Shown here in pieces: positions 13,131 to 52,852 of a stretch of 64,000 nucleotides of DNA (the stretch's first letter is position 1; each line of letters begins with the position of its first letter). Position numbers and translations under genes: made by a program. The stretch comes from Candidatus Berkelbacteria bacterium (GTDB lineage Bacteria; Patescibacteriota; UBA1384; 2-12-FULL-50-11). The stretch spans positions 151,113-215,112 of the forward strand of contig CP066697.1 of assembly GCA_016432625.1 (NCBI GenBank), in the 5' to 3' direction. The notes below the pieces were generated by a model. That model saw only the letters and a program-made list of their open reading frames with translations, did no database searches and was not told the origin of the DNA.

Positions 13131-13859
13131 ATGCTACTGCTGAAAACACTCTCAAAAGAATTCTACCAGACGCGCAACACGACATTTCCCGTTATCAAGT
13201 CGTTGAGCCTGACGGTCAAGAAGGGCGAAGTCTACGGCTTCTTGGGGCCGAACGGTGCCGGCAAAACGACAACCGTCAAAATGATCGCCGGCCTACTTTT
13301 TCCCGACAAAGGAAGCGTGACGATTGGCAAATACCCGGCCGGATCAAATGAAGCGGCGCAAATTTTAGGCTTCATGCAGGAAAATCCGCAATTTTACCGC
13401 TACTTGAGAGCGAGCGAAGTGTTAGAGTTTGTCGGGGAACTGTTCGGCCTTGAAAAAGAAGTTATCGCCGCTCGGTCGAATAAACTTTTACAGCAAGTGG
13501 GTTTGGAGAAGTTCGCCGACATCGCGGTACGCAATTTCTCCAAAGGCATGCATCAGCGCCTAGCCTTTGCCGTTGCCTTAATGAACGACCCCGAGCTGTT
13601 GGTTCTTGACGAGCCGCTCGACGGACTTGATCCGCTGGGACGACTAGACTTCAAAAAACTGATGGCTACCTGGAAAAAAGAAGGCCGGACTATATTCTTT
13701 AGCTCTCATATTTTAAGCGACGCCGAGGAGCTTTGTGACAGGGTCGGGATTTTGCAGCACGGTCAGCTTCTGGCCGAAGGCAAGCCTCGCGATCTGATTA
13801 AAGGCCAAGCTAAAACTTTGGAAGAGTACTTTGTCAAAACCGTAAGGCAGAATGCTTAA
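13131..13859 (+). CDS. ABC transporter ATP-binding protein (ABC-2 type)
   Basis: Walker A GPNGAGKTT, signature FSKGMHQRLA, Walker B LLVLDEP. Confidence 0.85.
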   Translation: MLLLKTLSKEFYQTRNTTFPVIKSLSLTVKKGEVYGFLGPNGAGKTTTVKMIAGLLFPDKGSVTIGKYPAGSNEAAQILGFMQENPQFYRYLRASEVLEFVGELFGLEKEVIAARSNKLLQQVGLEKFADIAVRNFSKGMHQRLAFAVALMNDPELLVLDEPLDGLDPLGRLDFKKLMATWKKEGRTIFFSSHILSDAEELCDRVGILQHGQLLAEGKPRDLIKGQAKTLEEYFVKTVRQNA

Positions 13860-14616
13860 AACTATTTTTGCGATTGCTCGAAACACATTCAAGGAAACAA
13901 TCCGCGACCGCGTTTTATATTCGTTAATCGGTTTTGCGGTTATCGTCATCGCCGCGAGTTTACTAGCGGCGTCGGTCTCGTTAGGCCAGGAAACGCGAGT
14001 AATTCAAAGTTTCGGCCTGACAGCGATGCTCGTTTTCCTACTCATAATTACTATTTTTATCGGTACCCAACTCGTCTGGCGGGAGGTCGAACGCAGGACC
14101 ATTTATATGGTGCTGTCGAAACCAGTCAGCCGCGAGGCATTTTACCTGGGCAAGTTCCTTGGCCTCTGCCTGACTATTCTGGTTGTCATGCTAATTATGG
14201 GCGCGGTGTTTGTGGCGCTGGTTGGTTATAAAACTAAAGCTGTCAGCGGCGTTCAAATTGCGGCGATCGTGATGATGATGGTCGAAGCCTGGCTGCTAAC
14301 CGCCGTTGGAATGTTATTTGCGAGTTTCACTTCGCCGCTTGCTAGCGCCGTTTACGCCTTCGCACTGGCGTTAATTGGGCATTCGGCAACCTCAATTTAT
14401 ATCATCGCCGCTAAATCGACTGGCTTTGCCAAATACATGTTAGAAGCGGTCTACTACGCTTTTCCGAATCTTGAAAAATTCAATCTGCGTAACGAAGTGA
14501 TTTTCAACGCGCCGCTAGACTTCAGTTATTTCTGGACGGCAATGCTATATTTTGTCGGCTATACCGCGGCGATGTTGCTACTAGGCATAGCCATCGTGCG
14601 CAAACATGAGTACTAA
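13852..14616 (+). CDS. ABC-2 type transporter permease
   Basis: Polytopic 254-aa protein that overlaps the ATPase gene by 8 nt. Confidence 0.7.
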   Translation: MLKTIFAIARNTFKETIRDRVLYSLIGFAVIVIAASLLAASVSLGQETRVIQSFGLTAMLVFLLIITIFIGTQLVWREVERRTIYMVLSKPVSREAFYLGKFLGLCLTILVVMLIMGAVFVALVGYKTKAVSGVQIAAIVMMMVEAWLLTAVGMLFASFTSPLASAVYAFALALIGHSATSIYIIAAKSTGFAKYMLEAVYYAFPNLEKFNLRNEVIFNAPLDFSYFWTAMLYFVGYTAAMLLLGIAIVRKHEY

Positions 14617-19351: not shown

Positions 19352-19957
19352 TTAGCGTTGCAGATTGCGGAGTTGCTCGTACAGATCACGTTCTTCGCGT
19401 GAGGGGCGCTTGGGGATTTCAATATGGATAACAACCGTCAAATCTCCCCGACCGCGGCGAGTTTGGGCGCCTTTGCCACGAAAACGAAAAGCCGCGCCTT
19501 CGGGTGTGCCGGGTGGAATCTTCAGCTCGATCTCATCGCCAAAATTGGTTTTGAAACGAACCGTGTCGCCAAGCACCGCTTGCGGGATCGAAACTGCCAA
19601 TTGAACCTGGACTTGAGAGAAGGCTGATTCGAACAAATCCTCAAAAATTGAGCCAAAACCTCCGCCGCCCTGACCACTAAAACTGCTGAAGTCGAAACCC
19701 CCAGCTTGACTCCCGAAACCGCTTTGGCTGCCAAAACCGGCTCCGGCCCGTGCCCCAGCGTGGCCGAACTGATCGTACTGGGCTCGTTTGTTTTTATCCC
19801 CCAGTACCTGGTAGGCCTCGTTTATTTCCTGGAACGCCGCCTTATCCCCACCTTTGTCGGGATGTAATTTGTGCGCTTTCGAACGGTAGGCCTTTTTAAT
19901 TTCGCCATCGCTGGCACCGCGGGGAACACCTAAAACTTCGTAAAAATCTCGAGCCAT
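19352..19957 (-). CDS. dnaJ: DnaJ-like co-chaperone, truncated architecture (J domain, G/F region, one C-terminal beta domain, no zinc finger)
   Basis: [35 protein letters not shown] with the HPD tripeptide, followed by a G/F-rich stretch. No CxxCxGxG repeats. 201 aa. Confidence 0.8.
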
Positions 19958-19979: not shown

Positions 19980-20008
19980 AATGTCAAGTTTGCTTTACAG
20001 AGTATAAT
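19980..20008. promoter_or_regulatory. Divergent dnaJ-like / ybjQ promoter region containing operator copy O3 (TGTCAAG-TTTG-CTTTACA, 19982-19999)
   Basis: On the minus strand the palindrome reads TGTAAAG-CAAA-CTTGACA, with GACATT at the position where the other two copies have TACAAT/TACATT. On the plus strand a TATAAT at 20003-20008 lies 6 nt before the ybjQ ATG. Confidence 0.5.
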
Positions 20009-24000: not shown

Positions 24001-25998
24001 TTAGTCTTTTTTGTCCCCGTCATCTTTTGGTTCTTCCGGCACATTTGTGTCCGGGGTGCCATCCGCCTTCGCCGAGGCTTCGTCGGATGAATCGTCTTTG
24101 GGGAGTTCTTCTTCCGGCTTCGGCTGTCCCTCCTGCGCTGAAGCTTCCTCCTTCGCAGATGCTTCGGAGGACGAGTCGGCGGGCGAGTCATACATCGCGG
24201 CGCCGACTTTTTGGAGGGCGGCACTCAATTTTTCCGCCTCCTCTTTGATTTTGTCTTTATCGTCGTTGTGGATGACGGCTTTGACGGCGGTAACGGCGTC
24301 TTCGACTTCGCGTTTGTCGTCCGGTTTGATCTTATCGCCCGCGTCTTTGAGGGTTTTTTCGCTCAAGTGAATAAGGTTTTCGGCGGCGTTTCGTTCTTCG
24401 ACCAGCTCTTTTTTCTTGGCGTCGTCGGCGGCGTGAGCCTCGGCCTCGGTTTTCATCTTTTCGATCTCTTCTTTGGATAGCCCACTCGAAGCCGTAATGG
24501 TGATGTGTTGTTCTTTGGAAGTGGCTTTGTCTTTGGCTTTGACGTTCAGAATTCCGTTTGCGTCGATGTCAAACGTCACCTCAACTTGCGGGACGCCGCG
24601 GGGAGCCGGTGGAATACCATCGAGATGGAACTTACCTAGCGTCCGGTTGTCGGAGGCCATTGGCCTTTCGCCTTGTAAGACGTGGATTTCCACAGATGGC
24701 TGGTTGTCGCTGGCCGTGGAAAACGTTTCCGTTTTTGAAGCGGGAATAGTGGTATTGCGCTCAATGAGCGGCGTCATTACTCCACCCAGAGTTTCGAGAC
24801 CCAAGGTTAGCGGGGTGACGTCGAGCAGAAGAATATCCTTAACTTCGCCTGATAAGACGCCGCCGTTAATGGCCGCGCCTAAAGCAACCGCTTCGTCGGG
24901 GTTAACGCCTTTCGATGGCTCTTTGCCAAAAACATCTTTAACAACTTGCTGAATCATCGGCATGCGGGTCATCCCACCGACCAAGATAACTTCGTCAATG
25001 TCAGATTTGGTGAGTTTGGCGTCTTTCAAAGCGGCTTCGCAGATGCCTCGGGTTTTCTTGATGAGGTCGCCAACTAAACTTTCCAATTTTGCGCGCGACA
25101 GATTCATCTGCAGGTTTTTTGGACCGTCAGCGTCAGCGGTAATAAACGGCAAGTTGATCTCGGCTTCCTGGGTTTGAGAGAGCTCGATCTTGGCTTTTTC
25201 AGCTGCTTCTTTGACCCGTTGCATAGCCATAGCGTCGCCAGTTAGATCGACACCCTCTTTGGCTTTGAATTCGTCGACGATCCAGTTCATCACTTGAATG
25301 TCGATGTCGTCTCCACCGAGGTGAGTATCACCGTTCGTCGAGAGCACTTCGAAGCTGGATTCGCCTTTGTCTTCGCCAATTTCGATGATGGTGATATCAA
25401 ATGTTCCACCACCAAAGTCGTAAACGGCGACTTTCTGGTCTTTTTTGTCTTCTTTGTTAATGCCGTAGGCGAGAGCCGCGGCGGTTGGTTCGTTGATAAT
25501 GCGCTTAACTTCGAGGCCAGCAATGGTGCCGGCGTCTTTGGTAGCCTGGCGCTGGGAGTCGTTAAAGTATGCCGGGACGGTAATAACAGCGCCGTCGACT
25601 TTTTCGCCGAGATAAGCCTCGGCATCAGCTTTGATTTTGGCCAGGATCATTGAGGAGATTTCTTGGGGGGTAGACTCGTTTTCGGCCATTTTGACCTTAA
25701 CGCCATCGCCGCTCTTTACAATTTTGTAAGGCATCAGTTTGATGTCGCGCTGAACTTCTTCGTCAGTGAAGCTACGACCCATTAAGCGTTTAACAGAGTA
25801 GATAGTATTTTCCGGATTGGTGACAGCTTGGCGCTTGGCGAGCGTGCCAACAAGGCGTTCGCCTTTTTTATTGACCGCGACGATGGACGGCACTAAGTTG
25901 CCGCCCTCAGCGGTTGGGATCATTTTGGCTTTACCGCTTTCGATGACGGCTGAAGCCGAGTTAGTTGTTCCCAGGTCAATTCCGATTATCTTAGACAT
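24001..25998 (-). CDS. dnaK: Chaperone DnaK (Hsp70) with an acidic low-complexity C-terminal tail
   Basis: [22 protein letters not shown]-type motif ([12 protein letters not shown]), [11 protein letters not shown]. The start is set at the ATG at 25998 rather than the in-frame GTG at 26004. Confidence 0.95.
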
Positions 25999-26056
25999 TT
26001 GCACCCCATTCTATGTCTGAGATATCCAAAACGGTGTTTTTGATAATCTTTCCCAT
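25991..26056 (-). CDS. Possible 21-codon upstream ORF overlapping the dnaK start
   Basis: ATG at 26056 with an AAGGAGGAGAG tract about 10 nt upstream. Encodes [21 protein letters not shown]. Its stop (TAA, 25993-25991) lies 2 codons after the dnaK ATG in another frame. Confidence 0.35.
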
Positions 26057-26099
26057 TTTGAGTAAGCTCTCCTCCTTAATTAGTCTATGTCTAAAGAAA

Positions 26100-26127
26100 A
26101 TTGTAAAGTTTCCTTTACATTTGTCAA
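26100..26127 (-). promoter_or_regulatory. dnaK promoter with embedded operator copy O1 (TGTAAAG-N4-CTTTACA, 26102-26119)
   Basis: Minus strand reads TTGACA-AA-TGTAAAG-GAAA-CTT-TACAAT. The -35 and -10 boxes are 16 nt apart and the perfect 7-bp-arm palindrome overlaps the -10 box. Confidence 0.65.
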
Positions 26128-26217: not shown

Positions 26218-26967
26218 ATGACCCTTCGAGAAACTTTACAATCCAATCGCCAACCCGACGTCGCCCTGGCGGACGACGTCGCCTTCGCCGTGATCGACTC
26301 GATCCGCCCGTTGATGGGCGCTGAACCACCTCCGGCTCGCGTCGACGGCGACCAAAGCCAACGGATGCGCTCCGCCCGCCTGGCCTACTTCATGCTTCGA
26401 GAACGAAGCGCGCACCTCGACACCTGTTTGCGCGTCATCGGTTCGGAAGAATTTCCGGTCGATGTACTCATTGCCGACTTGAAGGATGCCGAAAAGCGAC
26501 TTCATGCTCGGGCTCACAACGAGAACCAGACACTTAGTTGGCTGGGTCTTGCCGCTGTCGATTTCGATACGGTACTGATAGATGGGAACCAGCACGTCGA
26601 CTTCGACAAAGTCGTTTGTTACGGTTCCGCGACGCAAGAACAAGCCTTCTTTGGCACGATCGCCGGCCTGATGCCGCGACTGGCGTCCGAGGACAACACA
26701 AGCTTCACTAGTCACCTAGCAAAGTCTCTGTGCGCGGCCACGCGCCAGAAGCTCTGCAACGACTGGAACGGTACTGAGCTTTGTCTTGATGCCACGGCGT
26801 TCGGCTTCGCGCTGGGAACACGCGACCTGTATAGGCAGGCACAGACCCTGGCGTTCGAAAACAAGGAGCCGCTGCAACTGGATCATTTCGGCCGAGCAAA
26901 AGGCTGGGAGTCTCTCGCGCTTTTCGCGAGCTATCCGACGATCCGCGCCGCTATCCTGCCCAAATAA
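26218..26967 (+). CDS. Hypothetical protein (GC-rich insert between grpE and dnaK)
   Basis: 249-aa ORF with ATG start, on the strand opposite the chaperone genes, followed by a terminator. Confidence 0.5.
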   Translation: MTLRETLQSNRQPDVALADDVAFAVIDSIRPLMGAEPPPARVDGDQSQRMRSARLAYFMLRERSAHLDTCLRVIGSEEFPVDVLIADLKDAEKRLHARAHNENQTLSWLGLAAVDFDTVLIDGNQHVDFDKVVCYGSATQEQAFFGTIAGLMPRLASEDNTSFTSHLAKSLCAATRQKLCNDWNGTELCLDATAFGFALGTRDLYRQAQTLAFENKEPLQLDHFGRAKGWESLALFASYPTIRAAILPK

Positions 26968-27106: not shown

Positions 27107-27658
27107 ATGCAGAAATTCACCCCGCTTGGCGGACCAATGCTTCAAGGCATTGAGATGCTAGCACGACAACACGGCCTTCGCGGCCAGTTCAGTATTCTCC
27201 TTGCCGTGCGAACGCAGGAAATGATTGCGGACCACGACGAGAGATGCAGCGGCTGGTCAGTAATGGCTAGCGCCCGCAAAGACGGGAAGATACTCATTTA
27301 CCCATGGATGTGGGAAAGGTTTCTTGAAGAGGACGTCGCGACTGCGGTTGGCTGGATGGCCAATACGCTCGCCGAGGAAATCGGGCATCTCATCGATTAC
27401 GAGCGGTTTCCGGCCTGGACGGAAAGCTTGCTGGATTGGCGGTTTCTGCTGATTCGCAATCTCCGAGACCGGCTCGGGAAATCGATCCCGCGCCTACAGC
27501 CGTCGCTCGTCAAGCTCTACGAATGGGCTTACAGGCGCAGCTTCTTTGAGAAAAGAGCGAAGCGCTTCGCCGAGGATCATGAAGAGCAGTACTTCGCTGC
27601 TATCTGGCCTCACTTCCACTACTACAGGGAGGTCTATCTCAACTTGTCACGGGAATGA
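27107..27658 (+). CDS. Hypothetical protein (GC-rich insert). It contains an AEEIGH motif that loosely resembles a degenerate HExxH/ImmA-type site.
   Basis: 183-aa ORF. AGGAGG lies 6 nt upstream of the ATG and a TATAAT lies further upstream. Confidence 0.55.
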   Translation: MQKFTPLGGPMLQGIEMLARQHGLRGQFSILLAVRTQEMIADHDERCSGWSVMASARKDGKILIYPWMWERFLEEDVATAVGWMANTLAEEIGHLIDYERFPAWTESLLDWRFLLIRNLRDRLGKSIPRLQPSLVKLYEWAYRRSFFEKRAKRFAEDHEEQYFAAIWPHFHYYREVYLNLSRE

Positions 27659-28279: not shown

Positions 28280-29482
28280 ATGGGCGTTACTGTTACGCCA
28301 TCACAAAAATTCCTTATTTTTTGGCTGGCCTTGATTGCCGGCCTGGCTGTGGGCTCAAAAATCGATTTGCCGGTGATGACTTTGTTCTGGCTTTTGGCGC
28401 TCTGGCTCTGCTTACTGATAAGTGGCCAACAGGAACGGGTGGAGTTGATCAGTATTATTATGAGCGCCTTTATCGGCGGCTTGGCGGTCTGGCAGCTCAC
28501 TGGTGGCGAGATCTGGTTCAAAGCTGGATTTTTGCAGGGGATTGTGGCGAAGTTAGAACAATTTCGTGACACGATTACTGATCGAATTTTTCTCGCAATG
28601 CCCGAACCGCACGGCTCCTTACTCACTGGGATATTACTTGGCAATCGGGTTAAGCTGGATCGTGACTTGCTAGAAACCTTCAGGGTCGTTGGTCTGAGTC
28701 ACCTTATCGCCGTTTCTGGATATAACTTGAGCATTTTAACCGTTAACGCGCAGGCGTTATTGCGGCCGTGGTTAGGGCGCCGCGCTGTCTTTTTGTCCTT
28801 CGCGCTAATTGTAGCTTTCGTTATCCTATCCGGCGCGCCGAGCTCAATCTTGCGCGCCGCAGTCATGGCATCGGCGTTGTTGCTGGCAACGTATTTGGGT
28901 CGCCCGAGGCGATCGATTAACATTTTGATTTTTGCGGCTGGGTTTTTGGCATTATTCGAGCCGAAGATAATTTTCGAGATTGGTTTTCAACTCTCAATCG
29001 CCGCGACATACGCCCTGGTACGACTGGCGCCGGTTATCGCCTGGTCGTTGGAGCGGTATCCAAAAATACCCGAAACATTACGTTTGATTATTGCTGAGAC
29101 GCTTGCCGCGACTTTAATGACCGCACCAATTTTAATCGCCTATTTCGAGCGCATCTCATTAGTCTCGCCGTTGTCCAATCTTTTAGTGCTGCCGATTATG
29201 CCGATACTAATGGGGATCGGCATTGCTGGGACGGCGTTAGTGCTGCTGGTGCCGGCGCTTGGTAATTTAGCTCTAATGCTTGGCTGGCCGCTTCTGGAAT
29301 GGATCATCCAAGTTTCGCACCGCCTGGGCGGCCTTGAACACGCTGTCGAAGCCGCCTCGCTGCCACTTTGGGCGACCGTATTGATTGTGGTGGGGATGGT
29401 TGTGGCGGTAGAGTGGCTCTTCCTCACTTGGCGGCGGCGCGTTCCGGACATCGCCGTTAACTTCCGTCTCGCACGAATATGA
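28280..29482 (+). CDS. comEC: ComEC/Rec2 DNA-uptake channel, membrane (competence) domain only
   Basis: Polytopic. LLTGILLGNRVKLDRDLLETFRVVGLSHLIAVSGYNLSIL is the ComEC competence-domain signature. Confidence 0.8.
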   Translation: MGVTVTPSQKFLIFWLALIAGLAVGSKIDLPVMTLFWLLALWLCLLISGQQERVELISIIMSAFIGGLAVWQLTGGEIWFKAGFLQGIVAKLEQFRDTITDRIFLAMPEPHGSLLTGILLGNRVKLDRDLLETFRVVGLSHLIAVSGYNLSILTVNAQALLRPWLGRRAVFLSFALIVAFVILSGAPSSILRAAVMASALLLATYLGRPRRSINILIFAAGFLALFEPKIIFEIGFQLSIAATYALVRLAPVIAWSLERYPKIPETLRLIIAETLAATLMTAPILIAYFERISLVSPLSNLLVLPIMPILMGIGIAGTALVLLVPALGNLALMLGWPLLEWIIQVSHRLGGLEHAVEAASLPLWATVLIVVGMVVAVEWLFLTWRRRVPDIAVNFRLARI

Positions 29483-31679: not shown

Positions 31680-32909
31680 ATGTCTCCATTAAATACCCGC
31701 GGTAAATTAGCCGTCCGCCTTAAGGCGACGGAACCGCGCGTCCGGGTAATCTACGTCTCAACCTACATCCCACGCGAGTGCGGTATTGCGACGTACACCA
31801 AAGACCTTACTAATGCTATAAACCTGCTTAATCCTTATTGTCTGGCGGACATTGTTGCGATCGACGATCGCGATATGAACAAAACCAACTACCGCTACCC
31901 GTGGGAGGTGAAATATAAAATCCAGCAAAACAGCCCGAAGTCCTGGCGCGAGGCAGCCGCTTATATTAACCAGTCCAGCGCGGAGATTGTTCACTTTCAG
32001 CACGAATTTGGTATCTATAGTTCATCTGCTGGCTCTGCCGGTGAGCACGCCGTTTTGCTTGCTGAAGCGGTCAACAAACCGATCGTTGTAACTTTCCACA
32101 CGGTCTTGCCACGTCCAAGCAAGGCTCAACTAGCAAGTGTTCGTAAGCTCGCCAAGCTTGCCACGGCCATCACTGTTATGGTCGGTGCGGCGGTTAAACT
32201 TCTAGTAGATGTCTACGGCATCGACGAGAAGAAAATTGTTGTCATACCGCACGGCGTGCCAGACATTGGCTACACAACCACCAAAGGCGCCAAAGAGTAT
32301 CTAGGCCTCGGAGACGCGACGATAATTTCTGGTTTTGGCTTACTCAGCGAAGGCAAGGGTTATGAATACGCCATCGAAGCGATGCCCGCGATCGTCAAGC
32401 AAAACAGCAACGTCAAACTCCTCATCATTGGCGAAACTCATCCTGTTGTTCTTCGCCATCAAGGCGAGGCATATCGCCATAAACTCCACGCTCTAATTAA
32501 AAAACTCAAATTGTCACGTTCAGTAAAAATGGTAAATCGTTACCTGACGCTTGGGGAAATAATCGATTACCTAAAGGCGACAGATATATATATCACGCCG
32601 TTTTTGGGATTGGAACAGATTACTTCCGGCACGCTCTCTTATGCCATCGGTGCCGGTAAGGTCTGCGTTACTACGCCATATCGCTACGCGGAAGAGGTGG
32701 TGGACGACGATCGCGGCGTGTTAGTACCGCCAAGAGACTCGTGCGCAATGGCCGCGACTATCAACGATCTGCTCGCCCACCCAAGAAAGTGCTCGATTAT
32801 GTCCAAAAAAGCATATGCCTATGGGCGTAATATGATCTGGCCGAGCGTTGCCCTGAGGCATCTAGATCTCTTCGAGATCGTTAAAAAGGTTAGCTATGCT
32901 CGAGCTTAA
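31680..32909 (+). CDS. Glycosyltransferase family 4 (GT-B, group 1)
   Basis: ATG at 31680 preceded by AAAGGAGAG. C-terminal GT1-type region ITPFLGLEQITSGTLSYAIGAGKVCVTTPYRYAEEVV. Confidence 0.8.
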   Translation: MSPLNTRGKLAVRLKATEPRVRVIYVSTYIPRECGIATYTKDLTNAINLLNPYCLADIVAIDDRDMNKTNYRYPWEVKYKIQQNSPKSWREAAAYINQSSAEIVHFQHEFGIYSSSAGSAGEHAVLLAEAVNKPIVVTFHTVLPRPSKAQLASVRKLAKLATAITVMVGAAVKLLVDVYGIDEKKIVVIPHGVPDIGYTTTKGAKEYLGLGDATIISGFGLLSEGKGYEYAIEAMPAIVKQNSNVKLLIIGETHPVVLRHQGEAYRHKLHALIKKLKLSRSVKMVNRYLTLGEIIDYLKATDIYITPFLGLEQITSGTLSYAIGAGKVCVTTPYRYAEEVVDDDRGVLVPPRDSCAMAATINDLLAHPRKCSIMSKKAYAYGRNMIWPSVALRHLDLFEIVKKVSYARA

Positions 32910-50900: not shown

Positions 50901-51605
50901 CTACTTCTTCTTCACCTGAATCTTCGTGGTCTTCGGCTTAGCCGGTTCCACTTTCGGCGCCACTATCTTAAGCGTCCCGTTTTCGAGTTTGGCCTCAACC
51001 TTGTCTTCTTTGATCGGCGTGGCAAATCGAATTGAACGACTGAACTCACTGTGTTGCCACTCACGACGCACAACATTCTTGCCTTCTTTCTCATTTTCGT
51101 CGTGCTTTTTAGTGCCAGTGATAGTTAGTGTATCTTCCGTCATCTCGATCTGAACATCGTCTTCGGCGTAACCCGGAACCTGTAATTCGATTTCGTACTC
51201 TTTGTCGGTTTCATGAATATTCATGGCGCCGGCAACGGTGCCCAGTGCTCGCGACCAATCACCACGACCAAAATTACGGTTGACCATCTCGCTCATCTCT
51301 TCTTGCATTCGATCCATTGCCTGAAACGGACTCCATGGTGCTAATTGCATCTTCGACTGCTCACCTCCTTCCTGAATTTCGTTATCGGTTGCTTGCTGAA
51401 CAATGTTTATGCCTTCGATTAAATCCGGCAAATTACAGCGGAAAAATTCCATCAGTGAAATCAAAACTGGCGCGCTAGGCAGATACTCGCCACGTTCAAG
51501 CGAGATTATCGATTGGCGAGATACGTTTAATTCCCGAGCCAATTCTTCTTGGCTCAGATCTCGCTGGGTGCGTAACTGGCGTAGTAATAAACGGAATCGA
51601 GGCAT
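50901..51605 (-). CDS. Fusion protein: N-terminal XRE/Cro-type helix-turn-helix domain plus a complete Hsp20/alpha-crystallin small heat-shock protein
   Basis: Residues 1-65 (LRQLRTQRDLSQEELARELNVSRQSIISLERGEYLPSAPVLISLMEFF) fit the HTH_3 pattern. Residues about 125-215 (HETDKEYEIELQVPGYAEDDVQIEMTEDTLTITG...FSRSIRFATPIKEDKVEAKLENGTLKIVAPK) fit the alpha-crystallin domain. The C-terminal KIQV is an I-x-I/V motif. Confidence 0.8.
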   Translation of the reverse strand: MPRFRLLLRQLRTQRDLSQEELARELNVSRQSIISLERGEYLPSAPVLISLMEFFRCNLPDLIEGINIVQQATDNEIQEGGEQSKMQLAPWSPFQAMDRMQEEMSEMVNRNFGRGDWSRALGTVAGAMNIHETDKEYEIELQVPGYAEDDVQIEMTEDTLTITGTKKHDENEKEGKNVVRREWQHSEFSRSIRFATPIKEDKVEAKLENGTLKIVAPKVEPAKPKTTKIQVKKK

Positions 51606-51615
51606 TTATACGCCT

Positions 51616-51644
51616 AATGTAAAGTAAACTTTACATAGCGTCAA
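51616..51644 (-). promoter_or_regulatory. Promoter of the HTH-Hsp20 gene with embedded operator copy O2 (TGTAAAG-N4-CTTTACA, 51618-51635)
   Basis: Minus strand reads TTGACG-CTA-TGTAAAG-TTTA-CTT-TACATT (17-nt spacer). The ATG lies 10 nt after the -10 box, which implies a near-leaderless mRNA. Confidence 0.65.
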
Positions 51645-51655
51645 GGGAAAGGTTT

Positions 51656-52852
51656 TTACTCAAACCGCAAAGCGTCGACGGGATTTTTACGGGCGGCGCG
51701 AATTGCCGGGAAAAGGCCAAAGACAATACCAGCAAAAGCGCCCATTCCAACGGCTAACATGATTGTTTGCCAGCTCATAACGGGATTAAGCGGGGAGAAT
51801 CTAGCGATTAGTAGCGTCGAGATACGCGCTAAGCCAATGCCGATCAAAGAGCCAAAGAGGGTCAACAGTATTGCTTCGATCAGAAATTGCAACAAGATTG
51901 CACTTTCGGTAGCGCCAACGGCCTTTCGAATACCGATCTCTCGCGTCCGCTCTGTCACAGTGACGAGCATGATATTGGAGATGCCTATTCCGCCGACAAG
52001 CAGGGAGATAGAGGCAATTCCAACCACGAGATAAGCCATGACGTCGGTAATTTGATTGACCGTCGAAAGCAGATCGGTCGGCTTAAAGACTGAAAAGTCA
52101 CTCGTACCGTGTTTCGCGGTAAGCAGGCTTTTAACCTCCGCTATCGCCGGGTCAACGTCTTCAACCGTTTTGGCTTTGACGACAATGCGGTTAACGGCTT
52201 CTGATTTATTAATCTCGGTGGCGACGCTCGCCGGAACCAAAAACATATCGCCGGTCGTAGAAGTGAGATTCAATTCTTGGTCAATTTTGAATAAGCCCAC
52301 AACCTCAAAAGTTGACGCCCCAATTTTGACGCTATCGCCAACTTTAACGCTTATTTGTTCAGCTGACTTCTCGCTTAAGACGATTACCCTGTTCTTATTG
52401 GTAAGGTCGTTGTCGTTGATACTGCGGCCACCGACTATCTTGACGCTGAATAAATCTTCCGCGCCAGGCGTTATACCAACTGGCAGGCCGTTCAGCTTCT
52501 TGTCGTTGTGGTTAACGAGTCCGCCAAAGAAGACGGCGTACTCCATGTCTGGATCAAGTAATTTAGATTTGTCTTGCAAGTGCGTCACATCGTCAACGAA
52601 AATCGTTGACGGTGCCGTTATGCCAGAGATACTCGGCGCCCCTTCTTCAGCTTGTTCGCCCGGCATAATCAGGATCGTCCGTGGCCCAAAGTCCTCAACG
52701 AAGCCGGCAATTTGTTTCTGTACGCCACGGGCGGCCGAAAGCAACGTCACCACGGCGTAGATGCCGATAACGATGCCAAGCACCGTCAGGAAGCTACGCA
52801 GTTTATTGGCCCAGAGTGAGCCGATGGCGCTCCGTAAGCTGTCAAGCAGCAT
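51656..52852 (-). CDS. MacB/FtsX-type ABC transporter permease
   Basis: N-terminal TM helix, large periplasmic-type domain, and a C-terminal FtsX 3-TM bundle (REIGIRKAVGA motif). Confidence 0.8.
   Translation of the reverse strand: MLLDSLRSAIGSLWANKLRSFLTVLGIVIGIYAVVTLLSAARGVQKQIAGFVEDFGPRTILIMPGEQAEEGAPSISGITAPSTIFVDDVTHLQDKSKLLDPDMEYAVFFGGLVNHNDKKLNGLPVGITPGAEDLFSVKIVGGRSINDNDLTNKNRVIVLSEKSAEQISVKVGDSVKIGASTFEVVGLFKIDQELNLTSTTGDMFLVPASVATEINKSEAVNRIVVKAKTVEDVDPAIAEVKSLLTAKHGTSDFSVFKPTDLLSTVNQITDVMAYLVVGIASISLLVGGIGISNIMLVTVTERTREIGIRKAVGATESAILLQFLIEAILLTLFGSLIGIGLARISTLLIARFSPLNPVMSWQTIMLAVGMGAFAGIVFGLFPAIRAARKNPVDALRFE

Follow-up and report, generated by a model that had tools for sequence, protein, structure and literature searches.

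Which start codon does a ribosome-binding site serve when a second start codon has come to lie between the site and its gene? The question is raised by dnaK in a 64,000-nucleotide (nt) stretch of the genome of a Candidatus Berkelbacteria bacterium (Patescibacteria, CPR; GenBank contig CP066697.1, positions 151,113 to 215,112; this whole stretch is the window, and coordinates follow its own numbering). DnaK is normally among the most highly expressed proteins, and the gene in the window is intact, its product ~95% identical to those of its nearest relatives across 600 amino acids. The strong Shine-Dalgarno (SD) tract upstream of it leads, as a preliminary description of this DNA had it, to a 21-codon upstream open reading frame (uORF) and not to dnaK; the uORF has no gene call in the public annotation. 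The weak G-tract that was said to precede the dnaK ATG is also there, as an SD-like GGGGT 4 nt ahead of it. The same description placed this ATG 4 nt inside the end of the uORF; the measured overlap is 8 nt (ATGTCTAA), with the T of the TAA 5 nt downstream of the A of the ATG and the UAA positioned 2 nt beyond the dnaK AUG. It did not give the strand, which for dnaK and the uORF is the minus strand. The answer developed here is that the uORF very probably opens with the relic of the dnaK start itself, left behind by a 58-nt insertion after codon 5, and that it may now supply the replacement start with ribosomes.

The case for the insertion is comparative. The close relatives comprise 13 dnaK loci with ~11 distinct leaders (L002, L003/L004, L005, L006, L007, L008 and L167-L173), whose DnaK is 82-95% identical to that of the window in protein and ~77-84% in DNA. 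All 13 have TTGACA, the promoter palindrome taken up below, TACA(A/T)T and the SD site in common with the window. In these relatives AAGGAGG or TGGAGG is followed after 9-13 nt by the dnaK ATG, which continues straight into x-K-I-I-GIDLG. The uORF and the 58 nt are absent from all 13, and the insert is absent from ~140 more distant dnaK loci as well (drawn from genome and metagenome collections, among the matches listed, and used as a background set only). Aligning the 5' regions of relatives had been proposed at the outset as a check, and it yields one 58-nt indel, present in this genome only: the MAFFT alignment (A1) opens a single gap in all close relatives opposite the extra segment of the window. 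The earlier suggestion that the ancestral start was split from the gene body by such a segment is thus strongly supported. The two similar strings said to bracket it are the direct repeats AAGATTATC (26050-26042) and AAGATAATC (25992-25984), and their starts do lie exactly 58 nt apart.

That the uORF begins with the old start is seen from its first codons and from its leader. The best 120 DnaK homologs all begin M-x-K-[IV]-I-G-I-D-L-G, the closest of them MGKII, and the uORF opens with the first five codons of the ancestral dnaK (26056-26042; M-G-K-I-I). The leader of one close relative, L168, runs TTGACAAATGTAAAGGAAACTTTACAATTTTCCTTAGACAAAACTTTAAGGAGGAGACTTACTCTT-ATG-GGA-AAA-GTA-ATT-GGC and corresponds to the window nearly base for base through the uORF ATG-GGA-AAG; the uORF ATG is therefore the ancestral dnaK start. 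A spacing of 10-14 nt between SD tract and start had been regarded as a possible sign that the site does not function. The spacing is indeed long, 14 nt here, but it is 9-13 nt in the relatives and 12 nt in L168, and is thus native to the sublineage and not the mark of a dead site. In a neighbour-joining tree of DnaK (topology only, without support values) the window is nested among insert-free relatives, and L168 and L008, which have the same leader type, form basal branches, from which it follows that the insert is derived and that the leader type they have in common with the window is ancestral instead of recombinant. A mosaic of an L168-type leader and an L002-type gene body was considered and rejected: the sliding-window identity has no breakpoint, the relatives lying at 77-84% DNA identity.

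An upstream copy of the start is not what chance would be expected to provide. The pattern ATG-NNN-AAR-ATH-ATH has an expectation, from base composition, of ~0.0017 per 130-nt upstream region, and none of the 157 other dnaK loci fetched has it. The SD-preceded upstream open reading frames (ORFs) that end on a dnaK start in the background set are 3' ends of grpE, with one chance case only. Two other readings of the start region were rejected. Initiation at a GTG at 26004 would extend the N-terminus, which is universally conserved, by MQ-, and a frameshift into dnaK meets a frame closed by a TAG (26013-26011), with no slippery site ahead of the ATG.

The insert, AAAAACACCGTTTTGGATATCTCAGACATAGAATGGGGTGCAA followed by ATGTCTAAGATAATC, carries both the break and its repair. 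Its length, 58 nt, is not divisible by 3, and a frame read from the old start therefore comes to a dead end after 21 codons. Its last 15 nt are a diverged direct copy (11/15) of ATGGGAAAGATTATC, the ancestral sequence, placed exactly in register; this copy, ATG-TCT-AAG-ATA-ATC, recreates an N-terminus of the universal length, so that full-length DnaK is still encoded. Lys-3 is encoded by AAG in both copies in the window, by AAA in all relatives (22% of the Lys codons of dnaK are AAG), which mildly supports the view that, within this lineage, one five-codon copy was derived from the other; ATA, the new codon 4, occurs nowhere else among the 47 Ile codons of the gene. Farther upstream the insert holds, in TTTGGATATCTCAGACAT (26030-26013), an inverted quasi-copy of the dnaK 5' end (ATGTCTAAGATAATCGGAA), recovered by the repeat search as inverted repeat I2 (12 nt, 92% complementary, 14-nt loop); its score is reached in 11 of 5000 shuffles (p≈0.002). 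The resulting layout of direct, inverted and direct copies of the dnaK 5' end is read as the outcome of a small template-switch (fold-back) replication error, by which the insert would have arisen. Quasi-palindrome/template-switch mutagenesis and DUP-TRP/INV-DUP rearrangements are known sources of direct-inverted-direct layouts. The likeness lies in the copying of one short segment in this order, with imperfect arms; what differs is the tiny scale, with units of 15-19 nt inside a 58-nt insert. As for an outside donor, no 12-mer of the insert recurs elsewhere in the window, the 3'-junction pattern is without a counterpart in JGI metagenomes, and viral contigs yielded no match to the insert core. 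The dnaK of L169, which also encodes MSKII, was rejected as a donor: it reads ATG-TCA-AAA-ATA-ATT, with an unrelated leader ahead of it.

Table 1. Features of the dnaK start region and related sites, in window coordinates
Feature	Position	Strand	Particulars
dnaK coding sequence	24001..25998	minus	ATG 25998-25996, stop at 24001; 665 amino acids, intact
Ancestral dnaK Shine-Dalgarno sequence, AAGGAGG	26071..26077	minus	today precedes the relic uORF; 14-nt spacer from GGAGG to ATG
SD tract AAGGAGGAGAG	26077-26067	minus	read from the sequence
Relic uORF	25991..26056	minus	ATG 26056-26054, 21 sense codons, TAA 25993-25991
Lineage-specific 58-nt insertion	25984..26041	minus	very probable; gap in alignment A1; placement ambiguous within the 15-nt repeat; bounded by AAGATTATC/AAGATAATC
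Predicted hairpin, 5' arm UUUGGAUAUCUCAGACAU	26013..26030	minus	inverted quasi-copy of the dnaK 5' end; uORF codons 9-15
Predicted hairpin, loop AGAAUGGGGUGCAA	25999..26012	minus	14 nt; holds the SD-like GGGGU, 26007-26003
Predicted hairpin, 3' arm ATG-TCT-AAG-ATA-ATC-GGA-A	25980..25998	minus	replacement dnaK start; AUG predicted paired
Sigma-70-like dnaK promoter	26100..26127	minus	TTGACA 26127-26122, 16-nt spacer, TACAAT 26105-26100; 11/12 consensus matches
Palindromic operator-like TGTAAAG-N4-CTTTACA	26102..26119	.	between dnaK -35 and -10; perfect; inverted repeat I3
Palindrome copy	19982-19999		one mismatch; upstream of dnaJ-like gene 19352-19957
Palindrome copy	51618-51635		promoter of the gene for a 234-amino-acid XRE-type HTH + HSP20/alpha-crystallin fusion (50901-51605, minus)

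How would DnaK be made from such an arrangement? As the inheritor of the SD sequence and ATG of dnaK, the uORF is probably translated. Ribosomes would still load at the inherited strong SD and read the relic frame, and in doing so would unwind a hairpin in whose 3' arm the new AUG is concealed (Table 1); terminating at the UAA with this AUG inside their footprint, they would restart on dnaK, aided by the GGGGU of the loop. The relic frame would then serve as an adaptor for the delivery of ribosomes, by which the insertion is compensated, and not as an evolved sensor. The sequence offers what such a scheme calls for. The two frames are co-directional, lie on one transcript behind a single upstream promoter, which is separated from the SD tract by a leader of ~30 nt, and overlap stop to start; RNA structure is predicted over the dnaK start with one arm inside the uORF. 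The 51-nt RNA segment folds at -11.6 kcal/mol (z = -2.65, a value attained by 1 of 200 shuffles). The dnaK AUG has a predicted probability of being unpaired of 0.01-0.08 across 10-45 °C; the value at 37 °C, 0.06, ranks 6th among 152 distinct dnaK starts, for which the median is 0.50, with close relatives at 0.26-0.83.

Neither component of the scheme is novel. RNA unfolding and scanning or reinitiation are established mechanisms of translational coupling, and short uORFs that "deliver" ribosomes to a downstream gene have been proposed (PMC12548453; PMC6728339). Nothing on uORFs of dnaK was found in the literature searched. Within the window, stop/start overlaps of -1, -4, -8, -11 and -14 are common between co-directional genes, and there is one other -8 pair, at 13852-13859 (the starts are those of the longest ORFs); further overlapping co-directional pairs lie at 14606-14616, 29479-29482, 32896-32909 and 52842-52852. 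In several more distant Patescibacteria (L044, L055, L073, L129/L130 and L137) the stop of grpE overlaps the start of dnaK by 1-4 nt, and coupling of dnaK to an upstream ORF is thus an ordinary arrangement elsewhere in the phylum. Coupling of dnaK to the uORF by termination and reinitiation is plausible, with indirect support from the 8-nt overlap and from the predicted hairpin over the dnaK AUG; that it should be the main route of DnaK synthesis is a proposition held with barely more confidence than doubt. The composite account, in which an insertion-born relic start now delivers ribosomes that reinitiate on dnaK, is judged probable, if modestly so. A much stronger version, in which DnaK synthesis depends obligatorily on translation of the uORF and on melting of a hairpin sensitive to temperature or ribosome supply, which would make the element a newborn post-transcriptional control, is improbable.

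Several observations weigh against the composite account, and they bear on the history of the insert as well as on its working. The nearest relatives are just ~81-84% identical in dnaK DNA, and the event is dated loosely for that reason. The repeats on which the template-switch origin is based are short (12-19 nt), and no template was found for the first 10-23 nt of the insert or for the 14-nt loop. Simple tandem duplication of the leader, which was considered as an origin and rejected, is not supported: a comparison with the preceding 90 nt recovers just the 9-mer AGACATAGA, which 161 of 2000 shuffles equal (p=0.08). On the functional side, the fold of the whole leader is no better than that of shuffled sequence (z = -0.69), the AUG of the uORF is itself predicted to be paired, and the SD spacing of the uORF is 1-5 nt longer than that of the relatives. 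Moreover, the GGGGU, in an open loop and at good spacing from the dnaK AUG, may suffice for initiation by itself.

The last point leads to the most serious rival, according to which the uORF is inert: DnaK would be made mainly by independent initiation at the new AUG by way of the GGGGU, 4 nt ahead of it and predicted to be 30-68% unpaired, with the uORF merely wasting some ribosomes. Weak SD sequences are normal in this genome (a strong core precedes 17 of the 68 long ORFs of the window), the accessibility of the ribosome-binding region of dnaK as a whole is unremarkable (rank 19 of 152), and the uORF is conserved in no relative. Against this, the AUG that would have to be found directly is the one predicted to be buried in the hairpin; the strong, promoter-proximal SD is still aimed at the uORF, and the ribosomes loaded there all terminate atop the dnaK AUG; and every relative retains a strong AAGGAGG or TGGAGG for dnaK. 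Independent initiation is accordingly to be kept in mind as a distinctly less probable reading.

The preliminary description had seen in the uORF a possible extra layer of control, and that suggestion finds no support in conservation, because the uORF is present in no relative examined. It might be restated as a selected device, with uORF and hairpin forming a thermometer-like or chaperone-responsive switch. The attraction is evident, dnaK being a heat-shock gene whose start-hiding hairpin is statistically non-random and weakens with heat, its predicted stability dropping between 10 and 45 °C from -22 to -8.5 kcal/mol. But every hairpin destabilises with temperature, the arrangement is confined to a single lineage without the conservation or covariation that would indicate selection, and the template-switch origin accounts for the palindromic arms without it. 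A search of Rfam matched no family even at E≤10, known thermometers included, and the SD-like tract lies in the loop, unlike that of ROSE and fourU elements, in which it is in the stem. Selection for such a switch is therefore very unlikely. The uORF looks like a recent, compensated mutational by-product and not like a selected regulator.

The possibility that the leader is an artefact of assembly or sequencing, fusing the 5' ends of two strain alleles of dnaK, is suggested by the metagenomic derivation of the genome and by the allele-like differences between the two 5'-end copies (GGA versus TCT, ATT versus ATA). An identical leader is found, however, in an independent Logan assembly (L001, from SRR12113407), and the identical 665-amino-acid MSKII protein is deposited twice at NCBI, from two genomes (QQG50325.1 and QQG51908.1, on contigs of up to 768,791 bp). 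This agreement establishes that the leader is not a one-off assembly error. In addition, the junction ATC|AAAAAC offers no long shared k-mer that could have mis-joined an assembly graph, and the 43 novel nt of the insert match the leader of no relative, all of which makes an artefact very unlikely indeed. The most far-fetched reading is programmed bypassing of the T4 gene 60 type, with take-off at the AUC of codon 5 and landing on the matching AUC 58 nt downstream (26044-26042 and 25986-25984), for which the flanking AAGAUYAUC repeats exactly 58 nt apart and the SD-like GGGG ahead of the landing site can be cited, but the codon after take-off is AAA, neither a stop nor rare, the predicted folds contain no take-off hairpin, a 5-residue nascent chain is too short for a nascent-peptide signal, and bypass is unnecessary because the insert brings its own in-register ATG.

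The promoter that drives this transcript presents a separate matter. The palindrome between its -35 and -10 elements (Table 1) occurs at three sites in the window, against 0.14 expected, the other two lying upstream of a dnaJ-like gene and in the promoter of a gene that fuses an XRE-type HTH domain to HSP20/alpha-crystallin. It is found upstream of dnaK in 19 of the 171 loci fetched, distant Patescibacteria included. The HTH-HSP20 architecture is kept in more than 100 protein clusters of Patescibacteria that are annotated just as "Hsp20 family protein", and no NCBIfam model scores above its cut-off on the fusion. A homolog with 49% identity (L174) has a perfect palindrome in its own promoter (L174:1464-1481; 0.01 expected), and the dnaK promoter of the same genome (L173) also carries one. 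The HrcA operator CIRCE has the consensus TTAGCACTC-N9-GAGTGCTAA; the dnaK promoter of the window carries TGTAAAG-N4-CTTTACA instead. It looks as though the fusion may be an autoregulated heat-shock repressor of Patescibacteria and the palindrome its operator, and the sharing of the palindrome by the dnaK, dnaJ and HTH-HSP20 promoters suggests an undescribed heat-shock regulon of this phylum. Nothing on HTH-HSP20 regulators or their operator was found in the literature searched.

Some further features of the dnaK leaders and their surroundings are recorded for completeness. The dnaK leaders of the clade are prone to indels and range from ~30 to 150 nt in length. Three of them (L167, ~255-300; L169, ~45-90; L173, ~590-640) contain a GC-rich hairpin of ~45 nt, GCCCTTCG...CGAAGGGC, that sits between the promoter/operator and the SD site and that the other relatives are without; it may represent a mobile or structured element of small size. 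At its 5' end the window leader reads UCUUUA (26097-26092), which is by eye complementary to the start of the SD region, UAAGGA (26078-26073). In the L168 and L008 leaders UCCUUA or UCUUA is likewise complementary, by eye, to UAAGGA or UAGGA, and a short anti-SD/SD pairing could be conserved within this leader type. Between grpE and dnaK lie two ORFs on the opposite strand (26218-26967, plus, 249 amino acids; 27107-27658, plus, 183 amino acids), at 54-59% GC as against ~45-50% across much of the surrounding window, and with no match in Pfam, PADLOC or PHROGs. The same gap in relatives holds other small opposite-strand ORFs (of 110, 131 and 76 amino acids, and one for a His_Phos_1 protein). The differing contents make the grpE-dnaK spacer look like a hotspot for variable cargo.

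The locus is a natural example of survival after an insertion that broke the reading frame of an essential and highly expressed gene at its very start. The insertion itself supplied the in-register replacement start, and the ribosome-binding site orphaned by it now heads a short upstream frame, from which the new start is probably supplied with ribosomes. The locus thereby illustrates how a uORF, and with it an overlapping coupled pair, can be born in one step; were the obligatory dependence of DnaK synthesis on the uORF true, the start region of a gene would be shown to be capable of giving rise to regulators of the leader-peptide or uORF kind in a single step. There is also a warning for annotation, in that the strong SD here belongs to the unannotated relic and not to dnaK. 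General importance is limited because a single lineage is concerned: on the loci compared, the arrangement is a peculiarity of this one lineage and no conserved means of regulation. For heat-shock control in Patescibacteria the shared palindrome and the HTH-HSP20 fusion may matter more.

Comparison with systems already described places the arrangement, as modelled, among overlapping coupled ORF pairs, or "delivery" uORFs, with an RNA-unfolding component, which is a known kind. Programmed bypass of the T4 gene 60 type is defined by matched codons, a stop after take-off, a take-off hairpin and a nascent-peptide signal. With gene 60 and the mitochondrial byp elements the window shares a short insert, of a length not divisible by 3, within a coding sequence, and matched flanking codons; the other three of the four defining features, namely the stop, the hairpin and the peptide signal, are absent here, and the insert has a start codon of its own. 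RNA thermometers, as described families with the SD sequence in a labile stem, differ in that the GGGGU of the window is looped out and that no Rfam family corresponds. The leader peptides of ermC, secM-secA and tnaC are regulatory. The likeness to them consists in a short ORF ahead of a structured ribosome-binding site, access to which would be governed by the position of a ribosome; the difference is that the peptide here is neither conserved nor of a stalling kind and has no known ligand or signal, its first five residues being the old DnaK N-terminus, and that the conservation typical of a leader peptide is lacking, with the uORF absent from the 13 close and ~140 distant dnaK loci.

The closest parallels are the coupled pairs. 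Coupling through RNA unfolding is exemplified by genes VII-IX of phage f1, by the coat and lysis genes of MS2 and by E. coli rpmI-rplT (PMC12548453), in all of which, as in the window, the downstream start is hidden in a hairpin with its 5' arm in the upstream ORF. The hairpin of the window differs in being a predicted one (-11.6 kcal/mol) that is not conserved and is probably a mutational by-product. With pairs coupled by termination and reinitiation (Huber et al. 2019, PMC6728339; PMC12548453) the window shares co-directional ORFs, a stop/start overlap and an SD-like tract near the site of restart, but in the canonical pairs the overlap is -4 or -1, and the upstream partner is a real gene, whereas here the overlap is 8 nt and the upstream partner a 21-codon relic without protein function. 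What is unusual, then, is that the uORF would be the gene's own orphaned start, joined to it by an 8-nt overlap, and that a single insertion would have caused the break and provided both the hairpin and the replacement start.

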